Below, piece after piece: positions 3,001 through 63,018 of a DNA stretch of 64,000 nt. Every line of letters starts with the position of its first letter. Within the stretch, counting starts at the first letter, position 1. The DNA is taken from the NCBI GenBank assembly GCA_964016885.1, contig OZ024741.1:12338001-12402000 (forward strand), read 5' to 3'. A program made the translations under genes and the position numbers. Source of the stretch: Eledone cirrhosa (taxonomy: Eukaryota). The notes beneath the pieces were generated by a model. That model was given only the letters and a program-made list of their open reading frames with translations. It had not been told where the DNA came from and ran no database searches.

Positions 3001-6000
3001 GGGTATGTGGTTTGAATGTCTCAGGAGATCAGAGAATCACAACAGGTAGAGCTGCTACTCCTCCGATTTGAGATATCACATCTCTGATATTAAGGGTATG
3101 TGGTTAGAATGTCTCTGGAGATGAGAGAGTCACTCCAGGTAGAGCTGCTACTTCTCCAACTTGAGAGATCACAGGCACTCATATTAAGGGTATGTGGTTA
3201 GAATGTCTCAGGAGATCAGAGAGTCACTCCAGATAGAGTGGCTACTACTCCAAATTGAGAGATTACAGCTCTGATATTAAGGGTATGTGGTTAGAATGTC
3301 TCAGGAGATCAGAGAGTCACTCCAGGTAGAGCTGCTACTTCTCCGAATTGAGAGATCACAGGTCTGATATTAAGGGTCTGCGGTTAGAATGTCTCAGGAG
3401 CTCCGAGATTCACTCCAGGTAGAGCTGCTACTTCTCCGAATTGAGAGATCACCGCTCTGATATTAAGGGTATGTGGTTAGAATGTCTCAGGAGATAAGAG
3501 AGTCATTCCAGGTAAAGCTGCTACTTCTCCGAATTGAGAGATCACAGCTCTGATATTAAGGGTATGTGGTTAGAATGTCTCAGGAGATCAGAGAGTCACT
3601 CCAGGTAGAGCTGCTACTTCTCCAAATTGAGAGATCACAGCTCTGATATTAGGGGTATGTGGTTAGAATGTCTCAGGAGATCAGAGAATCACTCCAGGTA
3701 GAGCTGCTACTTCTCCGAATTGAGAGATCACAGCTCTGATATTAAGGGTATATTGTAAGAATGTCTCAGGAGATCAGAGATTCACTCCAGGTAGAGCTGC
3801 TACTACACTGAATTGAGAGATCACAGCTCTGATATTAAGGGTATGTGGTTAAAATGTCTCAGAAGATCAGAGAGTCACTCCAGGTAGAGCTGCTACTTCT
3901 CCGACTTGAGAGATCACAGGCTCTCATATTAAGGGTATGTGGTTAGAATGTCTCAGGAGATCAGAGAGTCATTCCAGATAGAGTGGCTACTACTCCGAAT
4001 TGAGAGATTACAGCTCTGATATTAAGGGTATGTGGTTAGAATGTGTCAGGAGATCAGAGAGTCACTCCAGGTAGAGCTGCTACTTCTCCGAATTGAGAGA
4101 TCACAGGTCTGATATTAAGGGTCTGTGGTTAGAATGTCTCAGGAGATCAGAGAGTCACTCCAGATAGAGTGGCTACTACTCCGAATTGAGAGATTACAGC
4201 TCTGATATTAAGGGTATGTGGTTAGAATGTCTCAGGAGATCAGAGAGTCATTCCAGGTAAAGCTGCTACTTCTCCGAATTGAGAGATCACAGCTCTGATA
4301 TTAAGGGTATGTGGTTAGAATGTCTCAGGAGATCAGAGAGTCACTCCAGGTAGAGCTGCTACTTCTCCGACTTGAGAGATCACAGCTCTGATATTAGGGG
4401 TATGTGGTTAGAATGTCTCAGGAGATCAGAGAATCACTCCAGGTAGAGCTGCTACTTCTCCGAATTGAGACATCACAGCTCTGATATTAAGGGATTAAGG
4501 GTATCTTGTTAGAATGTCTCAGGAGATCAGAGAGTCACTCCAGGTAGAGCTGCTACTACACTGAATTGAGAGATCACAGCTCTTTTATTAAGGGTATGTG
4601 GTTAAAATGTCTCAGAAGATCAGAGCATCATTCCAGATAGAGCTGCTACTTCTCCGAATTGAGAGATCACAGCTCTGATATTAAGGGTATGTGGTTAAAA
4701 TGTCTCAGTAGATCAGAGAATCGTTCCAGATAGAGCTGCTACTTCTCGGAATTGAGAGATCACAGCTCTGATATTAAGGGTATGTGGTTAGAATGTCTCA
4801 GAAGATCAGAGAGTCACTCCAGGTAGAGCTCCTACTACTCCGAATTGAGAGATCACAGCTCTGATCTTAAGGGTATGTGGTTAGAATGTCTCAGGAGATC
4901 AGAGAGTCACTCCAGGTAGAGCTGCTACTTCTCCGAATTGAGAGATCACAGCTCTGATATTAAGGGTATGTGGTTAGAATGTCTCAGGAGATCAGAGAGT
5001 CGCTCCAGGTAGAGCTGCTACTTCTCCGAATTGAGAGATCACAGCTCTGATATTAAGGGTATGAGGTTAGAATGTCTCAGGAGATCAGAGAGTCACTCCA
5101 GGTAGAGCTGCTACTTCTCCGAATTGAGAGATCACAGCTCTGATATTAAGGGTACGTGGTTAGAATATCTCAGGAGATCAGAGAGTTATTCCAGGTAGAG
5201 CTGCTACTTCTCCAAATTGACAGATTACAGCTCTGATATTAATGGTATGTGGTTAGAATGTCTCAGGAGATCAGAGAGTCACTCCAGGTAGAACTGCTAC
5301 TTCTCCAAATTGAGAGATCACAGCTCTGATATTAAGGGTATGTGGTTTGAATGTCTCAGGAGATCAGAGAGTCACTCCAGGTAGAGCGGCTACTACTCCG
5401 AATTGAGAGATTACTGCTCTGATATTAAGGGTATGTGGTTAAAATGTCTCAGAAGATCAGAGAATCACTCCAGGTAGAGCTGCTACTTCTCCGAATTGAG
5501 AGATAACAGCTCTGATATTAAGGGTATATTGTTAGAATGTCTCAGGAGATCAGAGAGTCACTCCAGGTAGACCTGCTACTACACTGAATTGAGAGATCAC
5601 AGCTCTGATATTAAGGGTATGTGGTTAAAATGTCTCAGGAGATCAGAGAGTCATTCCAGGTACAGCTGCTACTTCTCAGAATTGAGAGATCACAGCTCTG
5701 ATATTAAGGGTATGTGGTTAGAATGTCTCAGGAGATCAGAGAGTCACTCCAGGTAGAGCTGCTACTTCTCCGAATTGAGAGATCACAGCTCTGATATTAA
5801 GGGTATGTGGTTAGAATGTCTCAGGAGATCAGAGAGTCATTCCAGGTAGAGCTGTTACTTCTACGAATTGAGAGATCACAGTTCTGATAATAAGGGTATG
5901 TGGTTAGAATGTCTCAGGAGATCAGACAGTCACCCCAGGTAGAGCGGCTACTACTCCGAATTGAGAGATCACAGCTCTGATATTAATGGTATGTGGTTAG

Positions 6001-15000: not shown

Positions 15001-18000
15001 ACAGCTCTGATATTAAGGGTATGTGGTTAGAATGTCTCAGGAGATCAGAGAGTCATTCCAGGTAGATCTGCTACTTCTCCGAATTGAAAGATCACAGCTC
15101 CGATATTACGGGTATTTGGTTAGAACGTCTCAGGAGATCAGAGAGTCATTCCAGGTAGAGCTGCTACTTCTCCAAATTGACAGATTACAGCTCTGATATT
15201 AATGGTATGTGGTTAGAATGTCTCAGGAGATCAGAGAGTCACTCCAGGTAGAGCTGCTACTTCTCCGAATTGAGAGATCACAGCTCTGATATTAAGGGTA
15301 TGAGGTTAGAATGTCTCAGGAGATCAGAGAGTCACTCCAAGTAGAGCTGCTACTTCTCCGAATTGAGAGATCACAGGTCTGATATTAAGGGTATGGGCTT
15401 AGAATATCTCAGGAGATCAGAGATTCACTCCAAGTAGAGCTGCTACTTATCCGAATTGAGAGATCACAGCTCTGATATTAAGGGTATGTGGTTAGAATGT
15501 CTCACGAGATCAGAGAGTCACTCCAGGTAGAGCTGCTACTTCTCCGAATTGAGAGATCACAGCTCTGATATTAATGGTATGTGGTTAGAATGTCTCAGGA
15601 GATCAGAGAGTCATTCCAGGTAGAGCTGCTACTTCTCCGAATTGAGAGATCACAGCTCTGATATTAAGGGTACGTGGTTAGAATATCTCAGGAGATCAGA
15701 GAGTCATTCCAGGTAGATCTGCTACTTCTCCGAATTGAAAGATCACAGCTCTGATATTATGGGTATGTGGTTAGAATGTCTCAGGAGATCAGAGAGTCAT
15801 TCCAGGTAGAGCTTCTACTTCTCCAAATTGACAGATTACAGCTCTGATATTAATGGTATGTGGTTAGAATGTCTCAGGAGATCAGAGAGTCACTCCAGGT
15901 AGAACTGCTACTTCTCCAAATTGAGAGATCACAGCTCTGATATTATGCGTATGTGGTTAGAATGTCTCAGGAGATCAGAGAGTCACTCCAGGTAGAGCGG
16001 CTACTACTCCGAAATGAGAGATTACAGCTCTGATATTAAGGGTATGTGGTTAGAATGTCTCAGGAGATCAGAGAGTCACTCCAAGTAGAGCTGCTACTTC
16101 TCCGACTTGAGAGATCACAGGCTCTCATATTAAGGGTATGTGGTTAGAATGTCTCAGGAGATCAGAGAGTCACTCCAGATAGAGTGGCTACTACTCCGAA
16201 TTGAGAGATTACAGCTCTGATATTAAGGGTATGTGGTTTGAATGTCTCAGGAGATCAGAGAGTCACTCCAGGTAGAGCTGCTACTTCTCCGAATTGAGAG
16301 ATCACAGGTCTGATATTAAGGGTCTGTGGTTAGAATGTCTCAGGAGCTCCGAGATTCACTCCAGGTAAAGCTGCTACTTCTCCGAATTGAGAGATCACCG
16401 CTCTGATATTAAGGGTATGTGGTTAGAATGTCTCAGGAGATCAGAGTGTCATTCCAGGTAAAGCTGCTACTTCTCCGAATTGAGAGATCACAGCTCTGAT
16501 ATTAAGGGTATGTGGTTAGAATGTCTCAGGAGATCAGAGAGTCACTCCAGGTAGAGCTGCTACTTCTCCGACTTGAGAGATCACAGCTCTGATATTAGGG
16601 GTATGTGGTTAGAATGTCTCAGGAGATCAGAGAATCACTCCAGGTAGAGCTGCTACTTCTCCGAATTGAGAGATCACAGCTCTGATATTAAGGGTATATT
16701 GTTAGAATGTCTCAGGAGATCAGAGAGTCACTCCAGGTAGAGCTGCTACTACACTGAATTGAGAGATCACAACTCTGATATTAAGGGTATGTGGTTAAAA
16801 TGTCTCAGAAGATCAGAGAATCATTCCAGATAGAGCTGCTACTTCTCCGAATTGAGAGATCCCAGCTCTGATATTAAGGGTATGTGGTTAGAATATCTCA
16901 GGAAATCAGAGAGTCACTCCAGGTAGAGCTGCTACTTCTCCGAATTGAGAGATCACCGCTCTGATATTAAGGGTATGTGGTTAGAATGTCTCAGAAGATC
17001 AGAGAATCATTCTAGGTAAAGCTGCTACTTCTCAGAATTGAGAGATCACAGCTCTGATATTAGGGGTATGTGGTTAGAATGTCTCAGGAAATCAGAGAGT
17101 CACTCCAGGTAGAGCTGCTACTTCTCTGAATTGAGAGATCACTGCTCTGATATTAAGGGTATGTGGTTAGAATGTCTCAGGGGATCAGAGAGTCATTCCA
17201 GATAGAGCTGCTACTTCTCCGAATTGAGAGATCACAGCTCTGATAGTTAGGGTATGGGGTTAGAATGTCTCAGGAGATCAGAGAGTCACTCCAGATAGAG
17301 CTGCTACTTCTCCGAATTGAGAGATCACAGCTCTGATATTAAGGGTATGTGGTTAGAATGTCTCAGGAGATCAGAGAGTCATTCCAGGTAGAGCTGCTAC
17401 TTCTCCGAATTGAGAGATCCCAGCTCTGATATTAAGGGTATGTGGTTAGAATATCTCAGGAGATCAGAAAGTCACTCCAGGTAGAGCTGCTACTTCTCAG
17501 AATTGAGAGATCACAGCTCTGATATTAAGGGTATGTGGTTAGAATGTCTCAGGAGATTCAGAGAGTCACTCCAGGTAGAGCTGCTACTTCTCCGAATTGA
17601 GAGATCACAGCTCTGATATTAAGGATATGTGGTTAGAATGTCTCAGGAGATCAGAGATTCACTCCAAGTAGAGCTGCGACTTCTCCGAATTGAGAGATCA
17701 CAGCTCTGATATTAAGGGTATGTGGTTAGAATGTCTCAGGAGATCAGAGAGTCATTCCAGATATAGCTGCTACTTCTCCGAATTGAGAGATCACAGCTCT
17801 GATATTAAGGGTATGTGGTTAGAATGTCTCAGGAGGTCAGAGAGTCATTCCAGATAGAGCTGCTACTTCTCCGAATTGAGAGATCACAGCTCTGATATTA
17901 AGGGTATGTGGTTAGAATGTCTCAGGAGATCAGAGAGTCATTCCAGGTAGAGCTGCGACTTCTCCGAATTGAGAGATCACAGCTCTGATATTAAGGGTAT

Positions 18001-18485
18001 GTGGTTAGAATGTCTCAGGAGGTCAGAGAGTCATTCCAGATAGAGCTGCTACTTCTCCGAATTGAGAGATCACAGCTCTGATATTAAGGGTATGTGGTTA
18101 GAATGTCTCAGGAGGTCAGAGAGTCATTCCAGATAGAGCTGCTACTTCTCCGAATTGAGAGATCACAGCTCTGATATTAGGGGTATGTGGTTAGAATGTC
18201 TCAGGAGATCAGAGAGTCATTCCAGGTAGAGCTGCGACTTCTCCGAATTGAGAGATCACAGCTCTGATATTAAGGGTATGTGGTTAGAATGTCTCAGGAG
18301 ATCAGAGAGTCATTCCAGATAGAGCTGCTACTTCTCCGAATTGGGAGATCACAGCTCTGATATTAAGGGTATGAGGTTAGAATGTCTCAGGAGATCAGAG
18401 AGTCATTCCAGATAGAGCTGCTACTTCTCCGAATTGGGAGATCACAGCTCTGATATTAAGGGTATGTGGTTAGAATGTCTCAGGA
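1..18485 (+). repeat. 93-bp tandem satellite (~199 copies, begins before window) derived from RTE-clade LINE ORF2
   Basis: Monomer AGAGATCACAGCTCTGATATTAAGGGTATGTGGTTAGAATGTCTCAGGAGATCAGAGAGTCACTCCAGGTAGAGCTGCTACTTCTCCGAATTG recurs every 93 nt. It translates EIRESLQVELLLLRIERSQL*Y*GYVVRMSQ. Confidence 0.97.
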
Positions 18486-34774: not shown

Positions 34775-37700
34775 TTACTACAGCCATACTACAGCTATAC
34801 TACAGCTATACTAGAGCTATACTACAGCCATACTACAGCTATACTACAGTTATACTACAGCCATACTACAGCTATACTACAGCTATACTACAGCTATACT
34901 ACAGCCATACTACAGCTATACTACAGCCACACTACAGCTATACCACAGCCATACTACAGCTATACTACAGCTATACTATAGCTATAATACAGCCATACCA
35001 CATCTATACTACAGCCATACTACAGCCACACTACAGCTATACCACAGCCATACTACAGCTATACTACAGCTATACTACAGCTATACTACAGCCATACCAC
35101 AGTCATACTACAGCTATACTATAGCTATACTACAGCCATACCACATCTATACTACAGCTATAATACAGCCACACTACAGCTATACCACAGCCATACTACA
35201 GCTATACTACAGCCATACTACAGCCATACCACAGCCATACTACAGCTATACTACAGCTATACTACAGCCATACTACAGCTACACTACAGCTATACTAAAG
35301 CTATACTACAGCCATACCACAGCCATACTACAGCTATACTACTGCTACACTACAGCAATACTACAGCTATATTACAGCCATACTACAGGTATACTTCAGC
35401 TATACTACCGCTATACTACAGCTATACTACAGCCATACTACAGCTATACTACAGCTATACTACAGTCATACTACAGCCATACCACAGCCATACTACAGCT
35501 ATACTAGAGCTATACTACAGCCATACTACAGCTACACTACAGCTATACTACAGCTATACTACAGCCATACCACAGCCATACTACAGCTATACTACAGCTA
35601 CACTACAGCTATACTACAGCTATACTACAGCGATACTACAGCTATACTACAGTCATACTACAGCTATACTACAGCCATACTACAGCCATAACTAAGCCAT
35701 ACTACAGCCATACTACAGCCATACTACAGCTATACTACAGCTACACTACAGCTATACTACAGCCATACTACATCTATGCTACAGCTATAATACAACCATA
35801 CTACAACGATACTACAGCTATACTACAGCTATACTACAGCCTTACTACAGCTATACTACAGCTATACTACAGCCCTACCACAGTCATACCACAGCCATAC
35901 TGCAGCATACTACAGCTATACTGCAGCTATACTATAGCTATACTACAGTTATACTACAGCCATGCTACAGCCCTACCACAGTCATGCTACAGCTATACAG
36001 CAGTTATACTACAGCTATACTACAGCTATACTACAACCATACTACAGCTATTCCACATCTATACTACAAACATACGACAGCTATACTACAGCTATACTAC
36101 AGCTATACTACTGCCATACTACAGCTATACTACATCTACACTACAGCTATACTACATACATACTACAGTTACACTACAGCTATACTACAGCCATACTACA
36201 GCTATACTACAGTCATACTACAGCTATACTACAACCATACTACAGCCATACTACAGCCATACTACAGCTATACTACAGCTACACTACAGCCATACTACAG
36301 CCATACTACAGCTATACTACAGCTATACTACTGTCATACTACAGCTATACTACAGCCATACTACAGCTATACTACAGCTACACTACATCTATACTACATC
36401 TACACTACAGCTATACTACAGCAATATTATAGATACACTACAGCTATACTACAACCATACTATAACCATACTACAGCCATGCTACAGCTATACTACACCT
36501 GCACTACAGCCATACTACAGCCATACTACAGCTATACTACAGCTACATTTCTGCTATACTACAGCTACATTTCTGCTATACCACAGCCATACTACAGCTA
36601 CACCACAGCAATACTACAGCTATACTACAGCCATACTACAGCCATACTACAGCTATACTACAGCCATACTACTGTCATACTACAGCTCTACTGCAGCTAT
36701 ACTACCGCTATACTACAGCTATACTACAGCCATACTACAGCTATACTACAGCTATACTACCGCTATACTAGAGCTACACTACAGCTACACTACAAGTATA
36801 CTACAGCTATACTACAGCCATACTACAGCTATACTACAGCCATACTACTACCATACTACAGCTATACTACAGCTATATTACAGCCATACTACAGCTATAC
36901 TGCAGTTATACTACAGCTACACTACAGACATACTTCAGCTATACTACAGCCATACTACAGCTATACTACAGCTATATAACAGTCATACTACAGCCATACT
37001 ACAGTCAAACTACAGTTATACCTCAGTCATATTACAGTTATACTACAGCTATACTACAGCTATACTAACGCTATACTACAGTCATACTACAGTCATACTA
37101 CAGTTATACTACAGCTATACTACTGCCATGCAACAGCTATACTACAGCCATACTACAGCTATACTACAACTATTCTGCCGCTATTCTACAGTCATACTAC
37201 ATCCATACTACAGTCATACTACAGCTATACTACTGTCATACTACAGCTCTACTACAGCAATACTACAACCATACTACAGCTATACTACAGTTAAACTACA
37301 GCTATACTACTGTCATACTACAGCTATACTACAGCCATACTACAGCTATACTATAGCCATAACACAGTCATACTACAGCCATACTACAGCTATACTACAG
37401 CAATACTACAGCTATATTATAGCCATAACACAGCCATACTACAGTCATACTACAGCTATACTACAGCCATACTACAGCTATACTACAACTATCCTACAGC
37501 TATACTACAGCCATACTACAGCGATACTAAAGCGATACTACAGCAATACTAAAACTAAAGCAATACTAAAGCAATACTACAGTCATACTGGAGCTATACT
37601 ACAGCAATACTACAGCTATACTACAGCTATATTACATCTATACTACATCTACACTACAGCTATACTAGGGCCATACTACAGCTATACTACAGCCATACTA

Positions 37701-40362
37701 GAGCTATACTACAGCCATACTACAGCCATACTACAGCTATACTACTGTCATACTACAGCTATATTGAAGCTATACTACAGCTATAATACTGTCATACTAC
37801 AGACATACTACTGCAGCTATACTACAGCTATACTTCTGTCATACTACAGCTCTACTGCAGCTATGCTACAGCTATACTACAGTCATACTACAGCAATACT
37901 GCAGCAATACTACAGTCATACTACAGCCATGCTGCAGCCATTCTACAGACATACTACAGCAATACTACAGCAATACTACAGCTATACTACAGCTAAACTA
38001 CAACCATACTACAGCTATACTACAGCTATATTACAGCCATACTACAGCTATACTGCAGTCATACTACACCTATACTACAGCCATACTACAGATATACTAC
38101 AGCCATACTACAGCTATACTACAACCATACTACAGCTATACTACAGCCATACTGCACATATACTGCAGCCATACTACAGCTATACTAGAGCTATATTACT
38201 TCTATACTACATCTACACTACAGCTATACTATAGTCATACTACAGCTACACTACCGCCATATTACAACCATACTTCATTCATACTACAGCCATACTACAG
38301 CTATACCACAGCTATACTACTGTCATACTACAGCTGTACTACAGCCATACTACAGCTATACTACATCTATACTACATCTACACTAGAGCTATACTACAGC
38401 CATACTATAGAGACACTACAGCTATACTACAACCACACTACAGCCATACTACAGCCATACTACAGCTATACTACAGCTACACTACAGCCATAATACAGCC
38501 ATACTACAGTCATACTACAGTCATACTACAGGTATACTACAACTAAACTACTGTCTTACTACAGCTATACTACAGCCATACTACAGCTATACTACAGCCA
38601 TACTACCGCCATACTACTGCTAAACTGCAGCTATATTATAGCCATAACACATTCATACTACAGCCATACTACAGCTATACTATTGCTATATTACATCTAT
38701 ACTACATCTACACTACAGCTATACTACAGCCATAATAACGCTACACTACAGCTATACTACAGCCATACTACAGCTATGCTACAGTCATACTACAGTTATA
38801 CTACAACCATACTACAGGCCATACTACAGCCTTACTACAGCTATAATACAGCTACACTACAGCCATACTACAGCCATACTACAGCTATACTACAGCTATA
38901 CTACTGTCATACTACAGCTATACTACAGCCATACTACAGCTATACTACAGCTATACTACATCTATACTACATCTACACTACAGCTATACTACAGCCATAC
39001 TATCACTACACTACAGCTATCCTACAATAATACTACAGCCTTACTACAGTCATACTACAACTCTACTACAGCTGCAATACAGTCATACTACAGCCATACT
39101 ACAGCCATACTACAGTCATACTAAAGTCATACTACAGCTATACTACAGCTATATTACTGTCATACTACAGCTATACTACAGCTATACTACAGCCATACTA
39201 CAGCTATACTACAACCATACTGCAGCTATACTACAGTCATACTAGAGCCATACTACAGTCATACTAGAGTTATACTACTGTCATACTACAGCTATATTAC
39301 AGCTATACGACAGTCATACTACAGCTATACTATAGCCATAACACAGTCATACTACATTCATATTACAGTTATACTACAGCCATACTACAGCTATACTACA
39401 ACCATACTACAGCTATATTATAGCCATAACATAGTCATACTACAGTCATACTACATGTATACTACAGCCATACTACAGCTATACTACAACTATCTTACAG
39501 CTATACTATAGCCATACTACAGCGATACTACAGCAATACTACAGTCATATTACAGCCATACTACAGCTATAATACAGCCATACTAGAGCTATACTACAGC
39601 TATACTACAGCTATACTACAGCCATACTACAGCTATACTACAGCTATACTCCAGCTATACAATAGCCATACTACAGCCATACTACAGCTATACTAGAGCT
39701 ATACTACAGCCATACTACAGCCATACTACAGCCATACTACAGCTATACTACAGCCATACTACTGTCATATTACAGCTCTACTGCAGCTATACTACAGCTA
39801 TACTACAGTCATACTAGAGCCATACTGCAGCCATATTACAGTCATACTACAGTCATAATATAGCCATACTACAGCCATACTGCAGCCATACTACAGCCAT
39901 ACTACAGTCATACTACAGTCATACTATAGCCATACTACAGCCATACTGAAGCCATACTACAGCCATACTACAGTCATACTACAGTCGTACTATAGCCATA
40001 CTACAGTCATACTACAGCCATACTACAGCCATACTATAGCCATACTGCAGTCATACCACAGTCATACTGCAGCTATAATACAGCCATACTACAGCTCTAC
40101 TACAGCTATAATATAGCCATACTACAGCTATAATACAGCTATAATACAGCCATACTGCAGTCATACTGCATCCATACTGCATCCATACTACAGCTATACT
40201 ACAGCCATACTACAACCATACTACAGCTATACTACAGCAATACTACAACAATACTACAACCATACTACAGCTATAATACAGTCATACTGCAGCCAAACTG
40301 CAGCCATACTGCAGCCATACTGCAGCCATACTACAGCCATACTACAGCCATATTACAACCAT
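34775..40362. repeat. 11-bp minisatellite (CAGCTATACTA / CAGCCATACTA), ~500 copies
   Basis: Direct reading. The YYSYTTAILQ ORFs are artefacts of the repeat. Confidence 0.97.
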
Positions 40363-44825: not shown

Positions 44826-45410
44826 CACGAGGTGGGTCAGAAAAGTTCCAGGACTGATATCATATTTCAAATCCAAACTTCACACTAAGAGTTTTCTCCT
44901 TCAAAGTAATCCCCCTGGAGTCTAATGCACTTTTCCATCCTTTTATGCCACGCTTGCATGCACTCCTGGAAGGATTCTTCCGGGATCCTCCGCAGTTCCG
45001 TCGTCACGGCCTTTTTGATGTCATCCATGTCTTCAAAACGGGTCTCCCCCTGGTCGTACTCGAAGATACATGAGTCATCACTGGTGATGACTGTCCCTAG
45101 CAAGTCTGGTTCGGTTTCAAGACGCTCGAGGATGTCCTGCCACACTTGCATGCGTCGACCCTTCTGGTCATCGTTCAGCAGTTTTGACACCATCTTCGCG
45201 CAGACTTTCCGCATGTCCAAATCTTCAGTGAGAATCTTCCAGACACTGTCCCGATTCATGCTCAGCTCATTTGCCATCAGTCGAACAGTCAGCCGACGAT
45301 CGCTACGCGCCATCTGCCTGACACGCTCAACGTTGACGTTGACCTCAGTCCTGGTTGTTGAGGGCCTTCTGCTCCTGGGGTCATCTTCCACATCCTCGCG
45401 TCCTTCTTAA
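44826..45410 (-). mobile_element. Mariner transposon remnant with internally deleted transposase
   Basis: DDPRSRRPST, SDRRLTVR, RKVCAKMVSKLL, VITSDDSCIFEYD fused to RFEDMDDIK...CIRLQGDYFE. TIR-like CACGAGGTGGGTCAGAAAAGTTCCAGGACT next to TA at 44826. Confidence 0.9.
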
Positions 45411-45578: not shown

Positions 45579-45611
<33 letters not shown>

Positions 45612-45612
<1 letters not shown>

Positions 45613-45901
45613 CGTTTCTGAATTTGTTTAGCAAGATTTTTTATCTGAAATCGTGTGTTGAAACCGATATTGTTATACTTTGGGAGGGTCATGTTGCCAA
45701 TCACTGAAGAGGTCACAGAGTGTGTGACGAAAGGACTATGACTATATATAAACAACTATCTGGTTGTGGAACCAACCAACCAACCAGAAATTTATAAGTT
45801 TGTAAATTTGTAAATTTATAAATTTATAAATATATAATAAATTGAAGTGAAAGCAACTGGTGCGTGTGTTTCTTATTGGCAACATGACCCTCCCAAAGTA
45901 T

Positions 45902-49901: not shown

Positions 49902-50065
49902 TGTGCGTGTGTGTGTGTGTGTGCGTGTGTGTGTGTGTTTGCGTGTGTGTGTGTGTGTGTGTGTTTAAAATGAAGGAAAACCAATATTAACAACTTAAAC
50001 CCATTCTTTAATTCAATTCCTACGTACTCTGAATATCTTCAGGAATTACAAAAAGGTTTAAAGTT

Positions 50066-50240
50066 TGCCTGCCTCATCTCATCCTCATATCTGAGCGTCG
50101 GGGGTCATGGACTTATGGATCAGCACTCTCCATCTTTTCCTGTCTCTTACAATTGCCATACATTCCACCAAACTCCTTCCTGTTCATTCCCTAATATCAT
50201 CTGTCCATCTCCTTTTCTGTCGTCCCCTGGCCCTTTTCTC
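50066..50240 (-). mobile_element. RTE (BovB-like) LINE 3' end fragment
   Basis: Minus strand reads KRARGRQKRRWTDDIRE*TGRSLVECMAIVRDRKRWRVLI. Confidence 0.8.
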
Positions 50241-51881
50241 TTGTATTAAAATTTAACCAAATTCAAATTATAACAATAGATACAATATCAAATTCTGGAC
50301 GTTTCCAGGCATAAAATTGACTGAACATGAAATGGCCAAGTTGTAAATATAAAAGTGCAGGTACAAACCAAAGAAAAGGGCAATTAACACAATATGGAAT
50401 CTGGAATGGTTTATATCGAGAGTTTTCTTTATCTCCACATTACCAGTGGTTTCATGACGTAAACATGTCTGCCATACACTATGTCTTGATTGCTCTTTCC
50501 TTTCGTATCTGCCCGCACCCGTACAACTGCTGAAACTATTGTCTTGAAACAGCTGATAATGCGGAAATAACCCAATATATGTGGTTATTTATTTGTCAGA
50601 ACTCTTTAGTTACATATACTGTAACCTTCTCAATGACTTTCTCCTTTGTGTTTTCTCTTCGATTTGATTTTGTTTTATTTGCCCCATCTTGTATTTCCCT
50701 GTGGTGGCTGCAGTATGCGTGTTTTATTTAAATATGTATGTACTGTAAGAGGAAAATTACTCAGTAATTTTTTATAAATAAATAAATAAAGATACTTTTA
50801 ATGAAACAGAGAGAAAGTGGCGTCAAGTAACTTTCAATCCCCAACTAACTTACCCTCTGGATCCCAGTCGATATAATGGAGAATATATTACCCTGGAGGA
50901 TGTCGAAGGAGTGGTACTGGTTTAGCCAATACACCTGAAGAGGTTCGGACCTGCGGGCGACCAACTCCGCTCCGATGTTCTGTTAGTTCGTGTTTAGGTA
51001 TAATATGTGTTGTGTTCTGTTTCATAAAGTTTTAGAGAACATAAAACGATATTAGAGCGAATATTTTTCTAAACTATATATAAGTCCTCAAAGAGAATTC
51101 TAGAAGATTAGCTATGGAAGATTTCATAATAGTTTTGAATGGAACTGCGGGTTCGATGGTGATTGTTCCAGTTGTTCGATTAAAGGATCAACCTACTCAT
51201 GACATTAAGGTATAAGTAGTTGAGCATTGCACAAGCACGTGTATACCAACAGTTAAACACTAGCCAAAAATCAACACACGTTGATGTAATATGAATGTAA
51301 CTGAGTCAACATTTAAAATAGTTTGATATAGGTGGCACAATAAAGTGTAGCGCCACACTAAAATGTACACACAGTTATGAAATCTTTGTTATATTGTATT
51401 TCTGTTGATATGACGTTGTTTTATTTCATTTTTTATACCAGCGTCTTACCAACAGAAATTTTAATTCAGTAGTTCGGGCTAGCCTTAAATTCATGGTACT
51501 CCCTTTTTACCGTGCGAAACTGTGTCAGGTTAGAAGGAAGCTGATGAGGTCATTACTACGCTATAGTTATATATTTCTCTTTGGCTTACATTCTTCATCC
51601 TTTCTCCACTGTTTTTACTGTTTCGTAATTCTCCAAAATGAAAGGATTTGAACTCGCAACGTAAAGGTAGAAATAAAGTCATAAGCAGACTAAAAGTGAG
51701 AAACAGACACACACACACATACACACACGCACACATAAACAAACACACACACATAAACAAACACAGGCACGAACACATACACACAAACAAACAAACACTC
51801 GCACACATGTATAGATATGTGTGTGTGCGCAAGTGCGTGGGTATCCGTACACACACACACACACACATATATAGATATGTA

Positions 51882-51921
<40 letters not shown>

Positions 51922-52060
51922 AATATAAATATATATATATATTTATAAGTTGAAAAAAATGAAAACGAAATTTCATTTCTCACTCTTAGTATTGCACTTA
52001 CTTAAATGTAAGTATGTGTGTATACGTACATACATATATGTATACAGACGTACAGTAGCA

Positions 52061-52146
<86 letters not shown>

Positions 52147-52309
52147 TACATATATACATACAGGTACACATACATATATGCACGCATCAGTGTAGCGGAC
52201 GCTTATTATAACGCCGCTTTGTTCGTTTGTCAACAAACTGAACAGCCTGAATTTATGCCATACGGTGTTAAGGCAACCACGTCACCTTTTGGTTCAACAC
52301 TGACACAGG

Positions 52310-52354
52310 AACGATGTACTAGTTTCAAGCTTGTTAGCTATCATCAGCACCGTT
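52310..52354 (-). ncRNA. Minimal type I hammerhead ribozyme
   Basis: Exact reverse complement of 52822-52866. Confidence 0.85.
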
Positions 52355-52519
52355 TACCCATCTGCCAGATAGTTGAACGTTCGAAAGTATATACTTAACA
52401 CCGTATGGCATAAATTCAGGCTGTTCAGTTTGTTGACAAACGAACAAAGCGGCGTTATAATAAGCGTCCGCTACACTGATGCGTGCATATATGTATGTGT
52501 ACCTGTATGTATATATGTA

Positions 52520-52587
<68 letters not shown>

Positions 52588-52821
52588 TGCTACTGTACGT
52601 CTGTATACATATATGTATGTACGTATACACACATACTTACATTTAAGTAAGTGCCATACTAAGAGTGAGAAATGAAATTTCGTTTTCATTTTTTTCAACT
52701 TATCGTTTTCGGTATGCCTGACCGATTTAACTCACTCAATATGCAAATTAGGCTGCTCAGCCGTTAATTTTCATAAGGAAAGTATATACTTTCGAACGTT
52801 CAACTATCTGGCAGATGGGTA

Positions 52822-52866
52822 AACGGTGCTGATGATAGCTAACAAGCTTGAAACTAGTACATCGTT
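52822..52866 (+). ncRNA. Minimal type I hammerhead ribozyme
   Basis: AACGGTG-CTGATGA-T-AGCT-aaca-AGCT-T-GAAA-CTAG-TA-CATCGTT. 7-bp stem I and palindromic ACTAGT stem III. Confidence 0.85.
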
Positions 52867-52970
52867 CCTGTGTCAGTGATGAACAAAAAGGTGACGTGGT
52901 TGCCTTAACACCGTATGGCATAAATTCAGGCTGTTCAGTTTGTTGACAAACGAACAAAGCGGCGTTATAA

Positions 52971-54020
52971 TATTCTGTGTCTTTTATATCGGTAATTTAA
53001 TTTATTCGGTCCTCAATGTTGCCATTGACTGACCAACGGTTAAAAACACAGATACAATATAGACACAAACACATATATATAGTTTATCAAAGTTCTCTCG
53101 TTGCACATCTGCAGCATCGTCAGTGGTGCTATTGTTTCTATGTATTTTCTACGCCATCTTTATTTAGTCTGTTTATATATATATATATATATATTTTTTT
53201 TTGTCTCCTTTGCGCATGCGTTTGCGTGTGTGTATAGTGTTTTGTTTGATGTGTGTTCGTGATTGGGTGACTGTGTATTGGTTAATGTATTCTATCTTTA
53301 CTAGTGTGTGTTTATATGTGTTTGTTGTTATTGTGCTTGTGTATGTATTTATTTATTTATTTTTTCTATTTATTTATTTATTTATTTATACTTCTCTTAA
53401 GTCAGTGTTGTTTGTTTGAGTGTTGTTGTTATTCCATTCATTTTTTCTGTTTAGCCTTGGCCTTCTAAGTTCTATTTCACTGGCCTCTCTGATTTGCCTA
53501 TCTGCTGGGTCATTTCTATGTTTAGATATTATTCTAATTTCTATGTTGTCTATGTTACCGTGGTGTTGTTGTCTGGCATGTTCGTATAGTACTGAACCTT
53601 TTTTTCGTCCTTTTAGTTGCCCCCAGTGTTGGTCAATCCTTTCACCTATGGTACGAGCTGTCTCGCCTATGTATGTTGTTGTCATATTTCTGCAAGTACC
53701 CTCTGTACATCTTATGCTATAGACTACGTTTCTAGTTTTACAGTTTATCCGGGGGTTTACCTTACATATAATACATTTCCTATTAGTACAGTGGGTTTTC
53801 TTAAGAAAACCCACTTTTGACCGTTGGTCAGTCAATGGCAACATTGAGGACCGAATAAATTAAATTACCGATATAAAAGACACAGAAGCGAGAAGCGAAA
53901 ACCAACGAAACAGTGAGTGTGTTCTGTTATTAATTATGGCAATATTACACAAATATGACCCTCCCCAAGTATAACAATATTTGTTTCAACACACGATTTC
54001 ATATCAAAAACCTCGCAAAA
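52971..54020 (-). mobile_element. 5'-truncated Penelope-like element with inverted pLTR
   Basis: GIY-YIG ORF, degenerate hammerhead at ~53085-53127 (minus strand), and inverted arms 52973-53044 / 53815-53887. Confidence 0.88.
53386..53792 (-). CDS. Penelope-type GIY-YIG endonuclease C-terminal fragment
   Basis: CTNRKCIIC...NCKTRNVVYSIRC...YIGETARTIGERIDQH...YEH...RQIREASEIELRRPRLN. Confidence 0.9.
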
Positions 54021-54235
54021 CTATATATATATATATATATACAGTACATGCATAAATATACAAATACACACACAAACATATATAATATATATATATATAT
54101 ACATGTAAAGTTATATTTAAAATTGTTGGGTTACAACTAGTAAATATTTATAACTGATATAAAAGCACTCGACAAATATTTGGAGTATATTTACAATATT
54201 AAATAAATGGAAAACTATATTTATAAAACCATATT

Positions 54236-54301
54236 TATTTCATTATATATATTTCGGGGATATCATATTAACAATATGCTATGCCTTCATCAGACAAAAT
54301 A
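54236..54301 (-). ncRNA. Type I hammerhead ribozyme
   Basis: Reverse complement of 54742-54807. Confidence 0.75.
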
Positions 54302-54741
54302 CAATATAAACAGTTTTATAGATAAATATATTCGACATACCGTAATAAACATCAACTTCATTTGAAGAGGTTCACTCTAGCAGTGAAAATACAGAGAGAA
54401 AGAAAGAGAGAGACTACCTAATTTTTCTATATCTATATTTATATATGTATCTATCTCTATTTCCTCTCTCTCTCTATATATATATATATCTCTTTCGGTC
54501 TCTTTACATGAAGCTCTTCGCTTTATCTATTTTTCCATCTCTCTATTTTGTCCCATTCATTTCTTCTTTTTCTTCTTTTTCTTCCTTTTCTTCGTTTTGT
54601 CTTTCTTTCTTTCTTATTTCCCTCTTTTCTCTCTCTTTTTCTTTCTCTCTGTATTTTCACTGCTAGAGTGAACCTCTTCAAATGAAGTTGATGTTTATTA
54701 CGGTATGTCGAATATATTTATCTATAAAACTGTTTATATTG

Positions 54742-54807
54742 TATTTTGTCTGATGAAGGCATAGCATATTGTTAATATGATATCCCCGAAATATATATAA
54801 TGAAATA
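54742..54807 (+). ncRNA. Type I hammerhead ribozyme
   Basis: TATTTTGT-CTGATGA-AGGCATAGCATATT-gtt-AATATGATATCCCC-GAAA-TATATA-TA-ATGAAATA. Confidence 0.75.
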
Positions 54808-54845
54808 AATATGGTTTTATAAATATAGTTTTCCATTTATTTAAT

Positions 54846-54903
<58 letters not shown>

Positions 54904-54914
54904 ATATTTTTCAG

Positions 54915-55152
54915 GGTATGTCAATATTTATTTATTTATAAAACTAATCTATATTATATTTTATCTCATGAAAACGCACCATAATCTGCCTTGGTGGCCC
55001 TTGAAATATGTATAATTAAATAAATATGGTTTTATAAATATAGTTTCCATTTGTTAATATATTGTATATTTACTCCAATAATTTGTTGAGTTCTTTACAT
55101 CAGTTATAAAAAGATTTTGCTTGTTGTATCCCAACAAATTAAATATAACCTC

Positions 55153-55157
<5 letters not shown>
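54915..55157 (+). mobile_element. Diverged copy of the same pLTR family with a mutated hammerhead (54957-55022)
   Basis: Aligns with 54702-54851 and the reverse complement of 54101-54190. Core reads CTCATGA...CACCA/TGGTG...GAAATATGTATA. Confidence 0.7.
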
Positions 55158-55231
<74 letters not shown>

Positions 55232-55375
55232 ATATATATATATATATGTGTAGGAGGTGAGTTTTATTGTAGTACAATAAAGCAATGCAGATATCGGATA
55301 AGTAGCAATCTACAGTTTGTAGGACTGGAGTATAAATAATATATAAGATCAAAAGATGGTTAAAAGAGTTCCATG

Positions 55376-55445
55376 TATTTTATTATGCGCATTTCAAAAA
55401 CAAATATCATCATGGATAACATTTGCGTTTTCGTCAGATAAAATA
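55376..55445 (-). ncRNA. Type I hammerhead ribozyme
   Basis: Mirror of 55564-55633. Confidence 0.85.
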
Positions 55446-55563
55446 GGGAGACATGATATGAAGGTTAAAAAACACTTGTGAATAGTGCAGTTTTAAATCA
55501 ACATATGTTGATTTAAAACTGCACTATTCACAAGTGTTTTTTAACCTTCATATCATGTCTCCC

Positions 55564-55633
55564 TATTTTATCTGACGAAAGCGCAAATGTTATCCATGAT
55601 GATATTTGTTTTTGAAATGCGCATAATAAAATA
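55564..55633 (+). ncRNA. Type I hammerhead ribozyme
   Basis: TATTTTAT-CTGACGA-AAGCGCAAATGTTATC-cat-GATGATATTTGTTTTT-GAAA-TGCGCA-TA-ATAAAATA. Perfect 8-bp stem I and palindromic ATGCGCAT stem III. Confidence 0.87.
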
Positions 55634-55673
55634 CATGGAACTCTTTTAACCATCTTTTGATCTTATATATTAT

Positions 55674-55910
55674 ATATATATATATATGTGTGTACGTATC
55701 TTGGTGTGCATGTCTATATATATCTGTGTGTCTGTATGTATGCATGTATGCATCTATATCTGTATGTGTGTATATGCATGTATATATGTATGTATGTGTG
55801 TATGTATGTATGTATGTATGTATCTATGTATGTATGTATGTGTGTATGTATGTGTCTATGTGTGTATGTATGTGTCTATGTGTGTGTGTATGTATGTGTG
55901 TGTGTGTTTG
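55674..55910. repeat. (TATG)n/(TG)n microsatellite
   Basis: Direct reading. Confidence 0.9.
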
Positions 55911-55996
55911 TAAAGGTGTTTGAAATCTGACAGAAATTCGTTGCTAAGGAAGTGAGGCAAAACCAAATAGAGATAAAAACAAACAAATATATAAGT

Positions 55997-57100
55997 CAAC
56001 ACCCCACCCAACCTCTTCCACCCTACCTCCACTCACCCCACTCCCACTCCACCCCACCAACACCCACCCCACCACCACCCACCCCACCACCACCCACCCC
56101 ACAAACACTCCACCCACACATAACCCAGCCCCACAACCACTCCACCCAACCAGCACCCTCCCCACAACCACTCCACCTACCACCGCCCACCCCACCAACA
56201 CTCCACCCCACCACCACCCACCCCACCACCACTCCACCCAACCATCACCCTCCCCACAACCACTCCACCTACCACCGCCCACCCCACCATCACTCCACCC
56301 CACCATCACTCCACCCCACCACCACCCACCCCACCACCACTCCACCCAAACAGCACCCACCCCACAACCACTCCACCCAACTATCATTCACCCCACCATC
56401 ACTCCACCCAATACCCACCCCACCCAACACCAGCCGACCACTACACAACCTTAGCCCCAACCCATATACACCACTACTACAATTCGACACTTACATACCC
56501 ACCACCACCACCACCAGCACCATTAAACACTCCCCCCATAGCCTCCACCACCACCACCACCACCACCACCACCACCACCACCATAACACACTCACCCCGT
56601 AGCCTCCACCACCACCATCACCACCAGCACCTTTTACACACGCCCCCCATTGCCTCCAACACCACCAACACCACCATAACACACTCCCCCCGTAGCCTCC
56701 ACCACCACCAGCACCATTACACACGCCCCCTATAGCCTCCAACACCACCACCACCACCATTACACACACCCCCATAGCCTCCAACACCACCACCACCACC
56801 ACCATAATACACTCCCCCCATAGCCTCCAACACCACCACCACCATTACACACTACCCCATAGCCCACAACACCACCACCACCACCATTACACACTCCCCC
56901 CATAGCCTCCAACACCACCACCACCACCAACATTACACACTACCCCATATCCTCCAACACCACCACCACCAACACCATTACACACTCCCCCATAGCCTCC
57001 AACACCACCACCACCACCAGCACCATTACACATCTCCCCCATAGCCTCCAACACCACCACCACCACCACCATTACACACTCCCCCCATAGCCTCCAACAC
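55997..57100. repeat. C/A-rich low complexity followed by a ~40-50-bp minisatellite
   Basis: ACCATTACACACTCCCCCATAGCCTCCAACACCACCACC repeated from ~56500. Confidence 0.85.
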
Positions 57101-60100
57101 CACCACCACCACAACCAACACCACCACAACCAACACCACCTCAACCAACACCACCACCACCACCACCACAATCAACACTACAACCAACACCAGCACAACC
57201 AACACCACCACAACCAACACCACCAAAACCAACACCACTACAACCAACACCACCACAACCAACACCACCACAACCAACACCACCTCAACCAACACCACCA
57301 CCACCACCACCACAACCAACACTACAACCAACACCATCACAACCAACACCAGCACAACCAACACCACCACAACCAACACCACTACAACCAACACCAGCAC
57401 AACCAACACCACTACAACCAACACCACTACAACCAACATCACCACAACCAACACCACCACAACCAACACCACTACAACCAACACCACTACAACCAACACC
57501 ACCACAACCAACACCACCACAACCAACACCACTACAACCAACACCACTACAACCAACACCACCAAAACCAACACCACTACAACCAACACCACCACAACCA
57601 ACACCACCTCAACCAACACCACCACAACCAACACAACCACAACCAACACCACTACAACCAAGACCACCACAACCAACACCACCTCAACAAACACCACCAC
57701 AACCAACACCACCACAACCAACACCACTACAACCAACACCACCACAACCAACACCACCACAACCAACACCTACTACAACCAACACCACAACCAACACCAT
57801 CTCAGCCAACACCACTACAACCAACACCACCTCAACCAACACCACCACAACCAACACCACTACAACCAACACCTACTACAACCAACACCACAACCAACAC
57901 CACCACAACCAACACCTACTACAACCAACACCACAACCAACACCACCACAACATCAACATCAACAACCACCATCACCACAACCAACACCACTACAACCAA
58001 CACCCCAACCAACACCACCACAACCAACACCACTACAACCAACACCACAACCAACACCACCTCAACCAACACCTACTACAACCAACACCACAACCAACAC
58101 CACCTCAACCAACACCACTACAACCAACACCACCACAACCACCATCACCACAACCAACACCACTACACCAACACCACAGCCAAACCCACCACCACCACCA
58201 CTACCACCACCATTACCACGATTACCACCAACACCACCACCACTACCACCACCACACCACCACCATCACCACTAACACCACCACAACCAACACCACCACA
58301 ACCAACATCACCACAACCAACACCACCACAACCAACACCACCACAACCAACACCACCACAACCAACACCACCACAACCAACACCACCACAACCAACACCA
58401 CTACAACCAACACCACCACAACCAACACCACCTCAACCAACACCACCACAACCAACACTACCACAACCAACACCACTGCAACCAACACCACCACAGCCAA
58501 CACCACTACAACCAACGCCACCACAACCAACACCACCACAACCAACACCACTACAACCAACACCACCACAACCAACACCACCACAACCAACACCACTACA
58601 ACCAGCACCACAACCAACACCACCACAACCAATACCACCACAACAACAACATCAACATCAACAACTACCACCACCATCACCACAACCAACACCACTACAC
58701 CAACACAACAACCAACACCACCACAACCAACACCACTACAAACAACACCACCACAACCAACACCACCACAACCAACACCACCACAACCAACACCACCACA
58801 ACCAACACCACTACAACCAACACCACCACAACCAACACCACTAACACCACTACAACCAACAGCACCACAGCCAACACCACTACAACCAACACTACCACAA
58901 CCAACACCACTACAACCAACACTACCACAACCAACACCACTACAACCAACACCACCACAACCAACACCACTACAACCAACACCACTACGACCAACACCAC
59001 CACAAGCAACACCACTACAACCAACACCACCACAACCAACACCACCACAACCAACACCACCACAACCAACACCACTACAACCAACACCACTACAACCAAC
59101 ACGACCATAACCAACACCACCACAACCAACATCACCACAACCAACACCACCACAACCAGCACCACTACAACCAACACCACCACAACCAACACCACTACAA
59201 CCAACACCACCACAAACAACACCACCACAACCAACACAACCACAACCAACACAACCAGCACCACTACAACCAACACCACCACAACCAACACCACTACAAC
59301 CAACACCACCACAACCAACACCACCACAACCAACACCACCACAACCAACACCACTACAACCAACACCACCACAACCAACACCACTACAACCAACACCACC
59401 ACAACCAACATCACTACAACCAACACCACCACAACCAACACCACTACAACCAACACCACCACAACCAACACCACCACAACCAACACCACCACAACCAACA
59501 CCACCACAACCAACACCACCACAACCAACACCACCACAACCAACATCACTACAACCAACACCACCACAACCAACACCACCACAACCAACATCACCACAAC
59601 CAACACCACCACAACCAACACCACCTCAACAAACACCACCACAACCAACACCACCACAACCAACACCACTACAACCAACACCACCACAACCAACACCACC
59701 ACAACAAACACCACCACAACCAACACCACCACAACCAACACCACTACAACCAACACCACCACAACCAACACCACCACAACAAACACCACCACAACCAACA
59801 CCACCACAACCAACACCACTACAACCAACACCACCACAACCAACACCACTACAACCAACACCACCACAATCAACACCACCTCAACAAACACCACCACAAC
59901 CAACACCACCGCAACCAAGACCTACTACAACCAACACCACCACAATCAACACCACCTCAACAAACACCACCACAACCAACACCACCACAACCAACATCAC
60001 TACAACCAACACCACCACAACCAACACCACCACAACCAACATCACCACAACCAACACCACCACAACCAACACCACTACAACCAACACCACTACAACCAAC

Positions 60101-61960
60101 ACCACCACAACCAACAACACCACAACCAACACCTACTACAACCAACACCACAACCAACACCACCTCAGCCAACACCACTACAACCAACACCTACTACAAC
60201 CAACACCACAACCAACATCACCACAACCAACACCACCACAACCAACACCACTACAACCAAACCACTACAACCAACACCACCACAACCAACACCACCACAA
60301 CAAACACCTACTACGACCAACACCACAAACAACACCACCTTAACCAACAGCACTACAACCAACACCACCTCAACCAACACCACCACAACCAACACCACCA
60401 CAACCAACATCACCACAACCAACACCACCACAACCAACACCACTACAACCAACACCACTACAACCAACACCACCACAACCAACATCACCACAACCAACAC
60501 CATTACAACCAACACCACTACAACCAACAACACCACAACCAACACCACTACAACCAACACCACCACAACCAACACCACCTCAACCAACACCACCACACCC
60601 AACACCACCACAACCAACATCACCACAACCAACACCACCACAACCAACACCACTACAACCAACACCACTACAACCAACACCGCCACAACCAACATCACCA
60701 CAACCAACACCACCACAACCAACACCACTACAACTAACACCACTACAACCAACAACACCACAACCAACACCACTACAACCAACACCACCACAAGCAACAC
60801 CACTACAACCAACACCTACTACAACCAACACCACAACCAACACCACCACAACCAACACCTACTACAACCAACACCACAACCAACACCACCACAACCAACA
60901 CCACTACAACCAACACCTCAACCAACACTACCACAACCAACACCACTACAACCAACACCACAACCAACACCACCTCAACCAACACCTACTACAACCAACA
61001 CCACAACCAACACCACCTCAACCAACACCACTACAACCAACACCACCACAACCAACACCACTACAACCAACACCACCACAACCAACACCACCACAACCAA
61101 CACCACCACAACCAACACCACTACAACCAACACCACCACAACCAACACCACTACAACCAACACCACCACAACCAACACCACCTCAACCAACACCACCACA
61201 ACCAACACCACCACAACCAACACCACTACAACCAACACCACCACAACCAACACCACCACAACCAACACCACCACAACCAACACCACTACAACCAACACCT
61301 CAACCAACACCACCACATCCAACACCTACTACAACCAACACCACAACCAACACCACCTCAGCCAACACCACCACAACCAACACCTACTACAACCAACACC
61401 ACAACCAACACCACCTCAACCAACACCTACTACAACCAACACCACAACCAACACCACCACAACCAACACCTACTACAACCAACACCACCTCAGCCAACAC
61501 CACCTCAACCAACACCACTACAACCAACACCTCAACCAACACCACCACAACCAACACCACTACAACCAACACCTCAACCAACACCACCACAACCAACACC
61601 ACTACAACCAACACCTCAACCAACACCACCACAACCAACACCACTACAACCAACACCACCACAACCAACACCACCTCAACCAACACCACCACAACCAACA
61701 CCTACTACAACCAACACCACAACCAACACCACCTCAGCCAACACCACCACAACCAACACCTACTACAACCAACACCTCAACCAACACCACCTCAACCAAC
61801 ACCACTACAACCAACACCACAACCAACACCACCTCAACCAACACCTACTACAACCAACACCACAACCAACACCACCTCAACCAACACCACTACAACCAAC
61901 ACCACCACAACCACCATCACCACAACCAACACCACTAAACCAACACCACAACCAAACCCA
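57100..61960. repeat. 15-bp minisatellite (ACCAACACCACCACA / ACCAACACCACTACA)
   Basis: Direct reading. The poly-V/L ORFs are artefacts. Confidence 0.96.
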
Positions 61961-63018
61961 CCACCACCACCACTACCACCACCATTACCACCATTACCAC
62001 CAACACCACCACCACTACCACCACCACACCATAACCACCACCACTAACACTACCACGACCACCACCACAACCATTACCACTACCACCACTACCACCACCA
62101 CCACCAACACCACCACCATTCCTACCATCATCAACTCCACCACCACTAACAATACCCCCCCTCCACCACCACTATCACTACCACTACAGTTATGATGTTC
62201 CCTCCCCTTCTCTCCAGGCCTACACACCACCGCCACCACCAACTCCCAGCACACAGCGCCCCCATAAATGTAAGCAATTAATCACCATCACCATCACCAT
62301 TATCACCATTGTTACAACCATCCTAACTACCACACAAGCAACACCACTACTGCCACCTATAATCTCAACAATCACCACCATCACCACCATCACCATCACC
62401 ACCACCACCATCACCACCACCACCGACAACACCATCACCATCACCACCACCACCATCACCACCACCACCGACAACACCATCACCATCACCATCACTACTG
62501 CCACCTATAATCTCAACAATCACCACCATCATCATCACCACCACCACCATCACCGACAACACCATCACCATCACCATCACTACTGCCACCTATCATCTCA
62601 GCAATCACCACCATCATCACCACCATCACCATCACCACCACCACCACCACCACCAACAACAACAACAGAATCACCAAAACCATCACTACTGCCACCTATA
62701 ATCTCAACAATCACCATCATCACCACCACTACCACCACCACCACCATCACCACCACCGACAACACCATCACCATCACCATCACTACTGCCACCTATAATT
62801 TCAACAATCACCACCACCACCACCGCCATCACCACTACCACCACCATCACCACTATCGTCAAGAAGAAGAAGAACCGGGAAAAGGAAGAGGAAAAGGGAA
62901 AGAAAGATGAACAACAGAAACGACAACGACGACAACAACAACAATGATAACAACAACAACGATAACAACAACGACGGCAACAACAACAACAACAACAACG
63001 TCAACGACAGCAACATCA
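61960..63018. repeat. (ACC/ATC/AAC) low complexity with a recurring CACTACTGCCACCTATAATCTCAACAATC unit
   Basis: About 5 copies between 62345 and 62810. Confidence 0.85.

Follow-up and report, generated by a model that had tools for sequence, protein, structure and literature searches.

What kind of element leaves two identical hammerhead ribozymes on opposite strands of a repeat with no credible ORF, and by what route was it copied? The question is posed by positions 51945-52972 of a 64,000-nucleotide stretch of the Eledone cirrhosa genome (assembly GCA_964016885.1, contig OZ024741.1; hereafter the window), for which a first-pass annotation had proposed a young, non-coding derivative of a Penelope-like element (PLE) carrying minimal hammerheads. 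Comparison with related copies elsewhere in the genome provides a partly different answer. The locus is a single truncated, two-armed insertion of a non-coding, hammerhead-bearing repeat family with units of ~470 nt, and the family is likely to be copied by Penelope-type retrotransposon enzymes.

The layout of the locus is given in Table 1. The two arms are joined head-to-head with a 3-nt overlap and the direct repeat in the right arm has a period of 510 nt, confirming the inverted-plus-tandem structure initially described. The 3' end of the right arm has been lost at unit position 113, at its fusion with an insertion of a different family, PLE B (52972/52973). The arms differ from each other at three bases and in the number of TA units, the internal (TA)n being variable in length as had been noted. 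The 193 nt around each hammerhead are 99% complementary to the opposite arm, so that a read-through transcript would be likely to bury the ribozyme in a duplex. As the two hammerheads lie on opposite strands, the locus has no same-strand tandem pair and, with one hammerhead per strand, cannot release a unit RNA; together with its self-complementary arms, this makes the copy a likely dead end. ATG-started frames in the unit are no longer than 113 amino acids and mostly span the TA run. The earlier statement that the repeat has no ORF thus holds for the unit but not for the insertion abutting it at 52973, which retains the remnant of a GIY-YIG ORF (53386-53802, minus strand).

Table 1. Features of the hammerhead-bearing insertion and its PLE B neighbour (window coordinates)
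Feature	Position	Strand	Prediction
Target flank rich in (TA)n, at long 3' end of element	51867..51944	.	
Left arm, 452 nt, 5'-truncated; terminus at fixed 'long' 3' site (51945)	51945..52396	-	
TA-rich run inside left arm, 37 perfect TA units	52064..52160	-	
Type I hammerhead core, left arm; extended motif about 52295-52368	52310..52354	-	predicted cut after 52317
Right arm, 579 nt (one 510-nt unit plus 69-nt direct repeat)	52394..52972	+	
TA-rich run inside right arm, 28 perfect TA units; long hairpin predicted	52506..52584	+	
'Tail' separating the two 3' end sites, the short at about 52639 and the long at 52703; this copy continues across it	52639..52703	+	
Octamer-like ATGCAAAT, within conserved predicted hairpin	52741..52748	+	
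Extended type I hammerhead, right arm	52808..52881	+	predicted cut after 52859
Two-armed insertion of EN+ PLE 'B', other family, 5'-truncated	52973..54023	.	
PLE B minus arm, bears GIY-YIG ORF end 53386-53802	52973-53804	-	
PLE B plus arm, terminating in (TA)n	53815-54023	+	

The 45-nt motifs of the two arms (52310-52354, minus strand; 52822-52866, plus strand) are identical, as first reported, each comprising the CUGAUGA, GAAA and GUA core words and an ACUAGU palindrome. A type I descriptor finds six motifs in the interval 50001-56000 and none in any of 200 dinucleotide shuffles. The family hammerhead extends beyond this 45-nt core to flanks that include an internal loop and a helix-I extension, the order in the right arm being helix-I extension, loop 1 (GUAA/UCCU), 6-bp helix I, CUGAUGA, helix II with a U·U base and a UAACAA loop, GAAA and ACUAGU. 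Stem I, previously given as 7 bp, has six conserved pairs in a survey that covered 81 distinct variants in 308 occurrences, loci that overlap having entered this total repeatedly. The seventh pair, A-U, is replaced by U-U in many variants and represents the first base of loop 1. Positions 10.1/11.1, at the base of helix II, are U·U rather than G-C in family A and G-C in the sister family E. Elsewhere in this genome, U·U is also found at this position in a PLE pLTR and in a 310-nt repeat that is unrelated to the family, and it occurs in the axolotl hammerhead HHR_Amex2, which cleaves 22% as a monomer and more as a dimer (PMC7229834); it can therefore be considered a natural variant.

The stem covariation that had been anticipated among genomic copies is found. 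In an alignment of 12 representative variants, five of 15 pairs are altered on both sides and 95% of cells are paired, versus 84% when shuffled and 30-46% when slid; the 12 were hand-picked from the 81, are related (about three lineages) and supplied the structure itself, so that these figures are support and not a probability. ACUAGU is kept in all 12, though the variants were selected with it, and a looser search that did not require ACUAGU still returned mostly this family. The contact bases of the Schistosoma hammerhead have counterparts in loop 1, where UCCU faces GUAA or GUAU, and in the hexaloop's 3' A. Energies calculated on fixed core structures are -16.4 kcal/mol for a double hammerhead versus -3.6 kcal/mol for two singles, and the minimum-energy folds of the 45-mer and of an artificial dimer differ from the hammerhead fold. 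The unit RNA is predicted to self-cleave, a dimer-type cut being plausible from the energies. An Rfam scan of the whole window reported no hammerhead; with 201 nt as input, a sub-threshold match to HH9 was obtained (18.5 bits versus a cut-off of 52).

Judged by its sequence, the hammerhead is a canonical metazoan, Schistosoma-like type I ribozyme with covariation across subfamilies. The original description of it as a minimal hammerhead typical of PLE pLTRs does not stand, since the motif is of the canonical retrozyme type (PMC7229834). It resembles PLE minimal hammerheads in being type I, in the palindromic 15.2-16.2/loop 3 region and in its predicted dimer cleavage (PMC4209133). The minimal class is, however, defined by a helix II of 7-8 bp after a bulged base, a helix I of 4-5 bp and a G10.1-C11.1 pair, whereas here helix I has 6 bp and a defined loop 1, helix II has four positions and a hexaloop, and there is neither a G10.1-C11.1 pair nor a bulged base before a long helix II (PMC4209133); assignment to this class was rejected. 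Compared with the full-length hammerhead of Schistosoma Sm-alpha (PMC2632901), the internal loop 1 is alike (UCC(U):GUA(A/U) here, UCCA:GUAC there), and the hexaloop 2 ends in a 3' A in both (UAACAA here, CAAAUA there). The family copy differs from Sm-alpha in having helix II closed by U·U, and the position of the extrahelical pyrimidine is A in the copy at 52808-52881 and U in most other subfamilies (PMC2632901).

How abundant is the family, and what is its unit? A 31-nt core has 10,718 exact copies in the 3.0-Gb genome (control 0), with a looser core pattern giving 31,729 matches (control 5). Arrays of at least ten units are present, including one at C2:176.98 Mb with ten same-strand units spaced 471-477 nt apart, and subfamily A2 and family E also form tandem arrays. 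Unit lengths are 466-539 nt in A1, 420-433 nt in A2-A4 and 466-469 nt in E, with identities of about 81% for A2-A4 and about 60% for E. The units are short and non-coding, with a GC content of 35-39% (under 50%). Predicted circular folds are more stable than shuffles in seven of seven units (z -4.7 to -12.5; 25 shuffles each), z still being -9 in family E, which lacks a long TA run, and a similar hairpin series appears in the circular folds of three units. The octamer ATGCAAAT is present in 38 of 46 distinct units. Newt satellite 2 has an snRNA-type internal promoter with an octamer and a proximal element (PMC2220036). Among ten U1/U2 upstream regions of the Eledone genome, the octamer was found in one and a convincing proximal-element match in none, and such a promoter role for the octamer is unsupported by this comparison. 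The family or its A2 subfamily was found in three of four contig sets of unspecified kind and not in the fourth, which has no bearing on expression. The (TA)n inside family A units also serves as a target, with family E and other repeats inserted in it (L013, L370, L031, L277, L278).

By its sequence-testable features, the family is likely to be a non-LTR retrozyme. In common with the metazoan non-LTR retrozymes described to date, it has tandem non-coding units with one canonical type I hammerhead each, low GC, a stable predicted circle and co-existence with PLEs (PMC7229834; bioRxiv 10.64898/2026.07.22.740005). Its 466-539-nt unit is longer than the 170-400 nt given for retrozymes in PMC7229834 but inside the 51-972 bp of bioRxiv 10.64898/2026.07.22.740005. 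It stands apart from the retrozymes described in those two sources by its internal (TA)n of variable length, its use of (TA)n as a target, its two fixed ends and its insertions with two arms joined head-to-head. In the literature searched (subscription journals and repeat databases were outside its scope) there was no description of this family or of two-ended retrozyme insertions.

It is the insertion ends that point to the copying machinery. Across 14 reference units, copies terminate at two fixed sites 62-65 nt apart, the short and long sites of Table 1. Ends were mapped in 232 of 260 fetched loci, most of them picked by end pattern, 28 overlapping loci having been dropped. These contain 143 head-to-head pairs, 99 resolved and 44 unresolved (30 with an unassigned end, 14 running off the fetched stretch). 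Among the resolved pairs, 93 are long+short, and the six that break this rule are short+short (five) and long+long (one), a distribution with p about 1e-21 versus independent ends. The 57 loci chosen without reference to end pattern give 18 long+short pairs out of 20, with one short+short and one long+long, and 67 of 71 ends in these loci adjoin TA repeats. A further 116 arms have no mapped partner, partly owing to mapping breaks. The window accepted for a short end was wide (-8 to +15) because alignments run on into TA. Exact end patterns identify 666 long and 785 short ends genome-wide, both figures being variant-specific lower bounds. The ends lie within (TA)n, where target-site duplications, which in non-LTR retrozymes are longer than 4 bp when present, would be hidden.

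The arms also carry a record of their template. In 175 end-picked loci the predicted cut site is crossed by 174 of 281 arms and at least twice by 51; 5' ends do not pile up there, no arm of the 281 stopping within 3 nt and four stopping within 12 nt without crossing. Arms of the same insertion are 86-100% alike in 71 of 74 overlapping pairs and never as far apart as the 81% subfamily level; often they are at least 99% alike whilst being only 89-92% identical to the reference unit.

Two fixed ends with a tail on one arm match the PLE-type integration footprint. As in EN+ PLEs, there is 5' truncation, an inverted head-to-head copy, targeting of AT-rich or microsatellite sequence and a tail on one end, attributed in PLEs to two reverse transcriptase (RT) start sites (PMC11167929, PMC8557442, PMC3846280). 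The tail of 62-65 nt compares with 30-40 in EN+ PLEs (PMC11167929, PMC8557442, PMC3846280) and 59 in the local PLE B. Differences from EN+ PLEs are the lack of an ORF, the canonical rather than minimal hammerhead and the lack of homology to the local pLTRs examined. The earlier view of the family as young, non-coding and linked to PLEs is supported by the exact core copies, the PLE-type ends and the subfamily covariation.

We consider it probable that the family is a retrozyme, its RNA being predicted to cleave itself as a dimer and to form a circle, and that a Penelope-like RT/endonuclease inserts its copies into (TA)n by priming from both DNA strands. Tandem arrays would be transcribed, and adjacent hammerheads would pair through their ACUAGU palindromes and cut after GUA to release unit RNAs, which would then be ligated into circles, by analogy with the coral, mussel and axolotl retrozymes. 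A PLE protein would nick both (TA)n strands, and each strand would prime reverse transcription at its own fixed site within the RNA, the two sites being 62-65 nt apart; for this step the ends are observed, the PLE enzyme and both-strand priming being what we infer. Both cDNAs, made from the same template variant, would pass the cut site, end variably and join head-to-head, a pattern observed in the genome. For one PLE, in vitro work has demonstrated a pair of RT start sites, nicking of both strands and a preference for AT (PMC11167929), and PLE copies with a tail at one end have been described (PMC8557442, PMC3846280). More tentatively, each two-armed insertion may be the work of two Penelope RTs on one circular ribozyme RNA, each primed from one of the nicked DNA strands, starting at the long and short sites and able to roll round it several times. 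If so, these insertions would be a natural record of double-primed rolling-circle retrotransposition in which the ribozyme circle and its helper are unrelated in sequence.

The main rival replaces the circle with an uncut linear multimer transcript of the array, from which PLE-driven insertion would proceed with a weak hammerhead and no circular intermediate. Hammerhead cleavage was dispensable in the PAc assay, where uncleaved RNA was the main substrate (PMC11167929), and read-through of the cut site is accordingly as compatible with a linear multimer as with a circle; a transcript of a homogeneous array likewise predicts both read-through and common private variants. The U·U at the base of helix II also favours this reading, as does the inactivity of most Xenopus dimers, eight of nine predicted retrozyme dimers having failed to cleave in vitro (bioRxiv 10.64898/2026.07.22.740005). 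We nevertheless judge it unlikely: the hammerhead, its tertiary bases and the stable circular fold have been retained across about 40% divergence, and amongst 21 private variants common to all units of a locus there are six A>G and no T>C changes (p=0.012), a signal that is weak and partly non-independent, with single-unit loci displaying no bias.

A second alternative concerns the inverted arm: priming might occur only once, with fold-back or self-priming then producing this arm in place of second priming at the short site. In its favour, PLE inversions have been ascribed to self-priming as a proposal (PMC3846280), palindromes or overlaps occur at several junctions and private variants are common to both arms. 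It is made improbable by the second arm, which ends at a different fixed site in 93 of 99 pairs, can comprise many units and in most cases begins at a distance from the 5' end of the first arm.

If both-strand priming by a PLE is the preferred reading, which PLE might be responsible? The neighbour of the hammerhead insertion provides one candidate. The 138-amino acid remnant of PLE B is 96% identical to a 1,171-amino acid open frame elsewhere in the genome that has RT and GIY-YIG signatures and a CX4CxxC linker as named for Neptune; Pfam missed the GIY-YIG domain, which was detected with a local profile, and a PDB search returned nothing useful. The best-scoring 150 PLE B matches are 96-100% identical and stop-free, and PLE B has two ends of its own, 59 nt apart in (TA)n targets, in the same pattern as the hammerhead family. 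PLE B is a young, coding PLE in this genome. At 52972/52973 neither of the abutting arms has its proper 3' end, a state consistent with a deletion that joined two nearby insertions. The PLE B pLTR has a hammerhead of the minimal type (helix II of 6 bp) at 53085-53123 (minus strand), in which GAAA reads GAGA; the GAAA word is intact in loci L081 and L082.

Hybrid head-to-head junctions with other PLE-type families account for three of the 116 unpaired arms, the partners being B (L263), another GIY-YIG family (L095) and a B-related repeat (L354). They are too few and too mixed to name the helper PLE, and nesting in TA hot spots could account for them. At L095 (1273-2124 and 3546-4396) an A4 arm lies head-to-head with the other GIY-YIG PLE via a short microhomology, and this chimeric junction is itself duplicated in inverted form. 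A Neptune-like PLE family (L106-L133, L233-L262; 940 pattern matches), with (TA)n between its two 3' ends, has a pLTR hammerhead with a U3-A8 core variant, a U·U helix II and an ACCGGU helix III.

The same search bears on whether the repeats might be solo or tandem pLTRs of an autonomous PLE not found here, a reading for which we see little chance. It draws on the PLE-type ends and on Xenopus, where 24 of 57 retrozyme families matched known transposable elements, 21 of the 22 elements hit being PLEs (bioRxiv 10.64898/2026.07.22.740005), and the comparison covered a sample of the tens of thousands of loci, namely 55 of PLEs and 260 of the family. Within that sample, no RT plus GIY-YIG ORF is flanked by the unit, and among the matches listed no pLTR homologous to the unit occurs in the 55 PLE loci, nor is there unit homology in PLE B, three Neptune-like groups or others; descent from a PLE, as the word 'derivative' had implied, is not supported. 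The arrays have no ORF between units, the unit directly follows an ORF in none of four loci checked by coordinates, and the hammerhead is canonical, unlike the minimal ones in the pLTRs of PLE B and N1 (N1 has the U·U helix-II layout of the unit but no common sequence). With the initial set of PLE proteins as queries, 14 of 260 family loci gave a match, with families and orientations mixed; an additional PLE peptide query matched more of these loci, at low identity. The element is better classed as a non-LTR retrozyme using PLE machinery than as a PLE derivative. That it is a DNA-level satellite or MITE-like element with a relic hammerhead, as the long homogeneous arrays might suggest, is barely credible and largely refuted by the end mapping, given that 3' ends are fixed and 5' ends variable, that arms lie head-to-head, that a terminal inverted repeat of set size is lacking and that the RNA structure shows covariation.

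By itself, the copy at 51945-52972 is an ordinary dead copy. PLE mobilisation of animal retrozymes has been proposed from co-occurrence, hammerhead type and pLTR phylogeny, without end mapping in the accounts concerned (PMC7229834; bioRxiv 10.64898/2026.07.22.740005). The present results are genomic evidence for that already proposed route, the footprint being the addition: it is carried by the ends of the retrozyme insertions themselves, located with a precision of a few nucleotides, in a family that is young, numbers more than 10,000 copies and lives alongside PLEs with long open frames. In vitro work thereby gains a defined RNA with two predicted RT start sites, as well as a target and candidate enzymes, for addressing the entry of ribozyme circles into genomes and the formation of PLE inversions.

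Several other elements of the window and genome deserve mention. A candidate scrambled (S-G-C) hammerhead lies at 51492-51560 (plus strand; GGUA about 51495, GAAA 51516, CUGAUGA 51541). Its helices I and III can be paired on inspection, and the older repeat to which it belongs has 40 scored matches of 74-86%. A second inverted pair of type I hammerheads, from another family, occupies 54236-54301 (minus) and 54742-54807 (plus) within 228-nt inverted arms and has a long helix II and a AUAUAUAU helix III, whilst a third, with a CUGACGA core and a AUGCGCAU helix III, occupies 55376-55445 (minus) and 55564-55633 (plus) in a perfect 348-nt palindrome. At 45590-45760 a hammerhead-like motif (CUGAAGA core at 45704) is found in a repeat with the short 3' end sequence of PLE B that recurs in L354 and L366. 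A broken transposase fragment at 44885-45406 (minus), with HTH_32 below cut-off, we take to be mariner-like. Long satellites comprise a 93-bp repeat x198, an 11-bp repeat x508 and a CCA-rich 15/45-bp array (1-18485, 34776-40357, 56499-62853). Outside the window, L399 (C1:53.42 Mb) is an unrelated 310-nt tandem array of at least nine units, each with a U·U-closed type I hammerhead.
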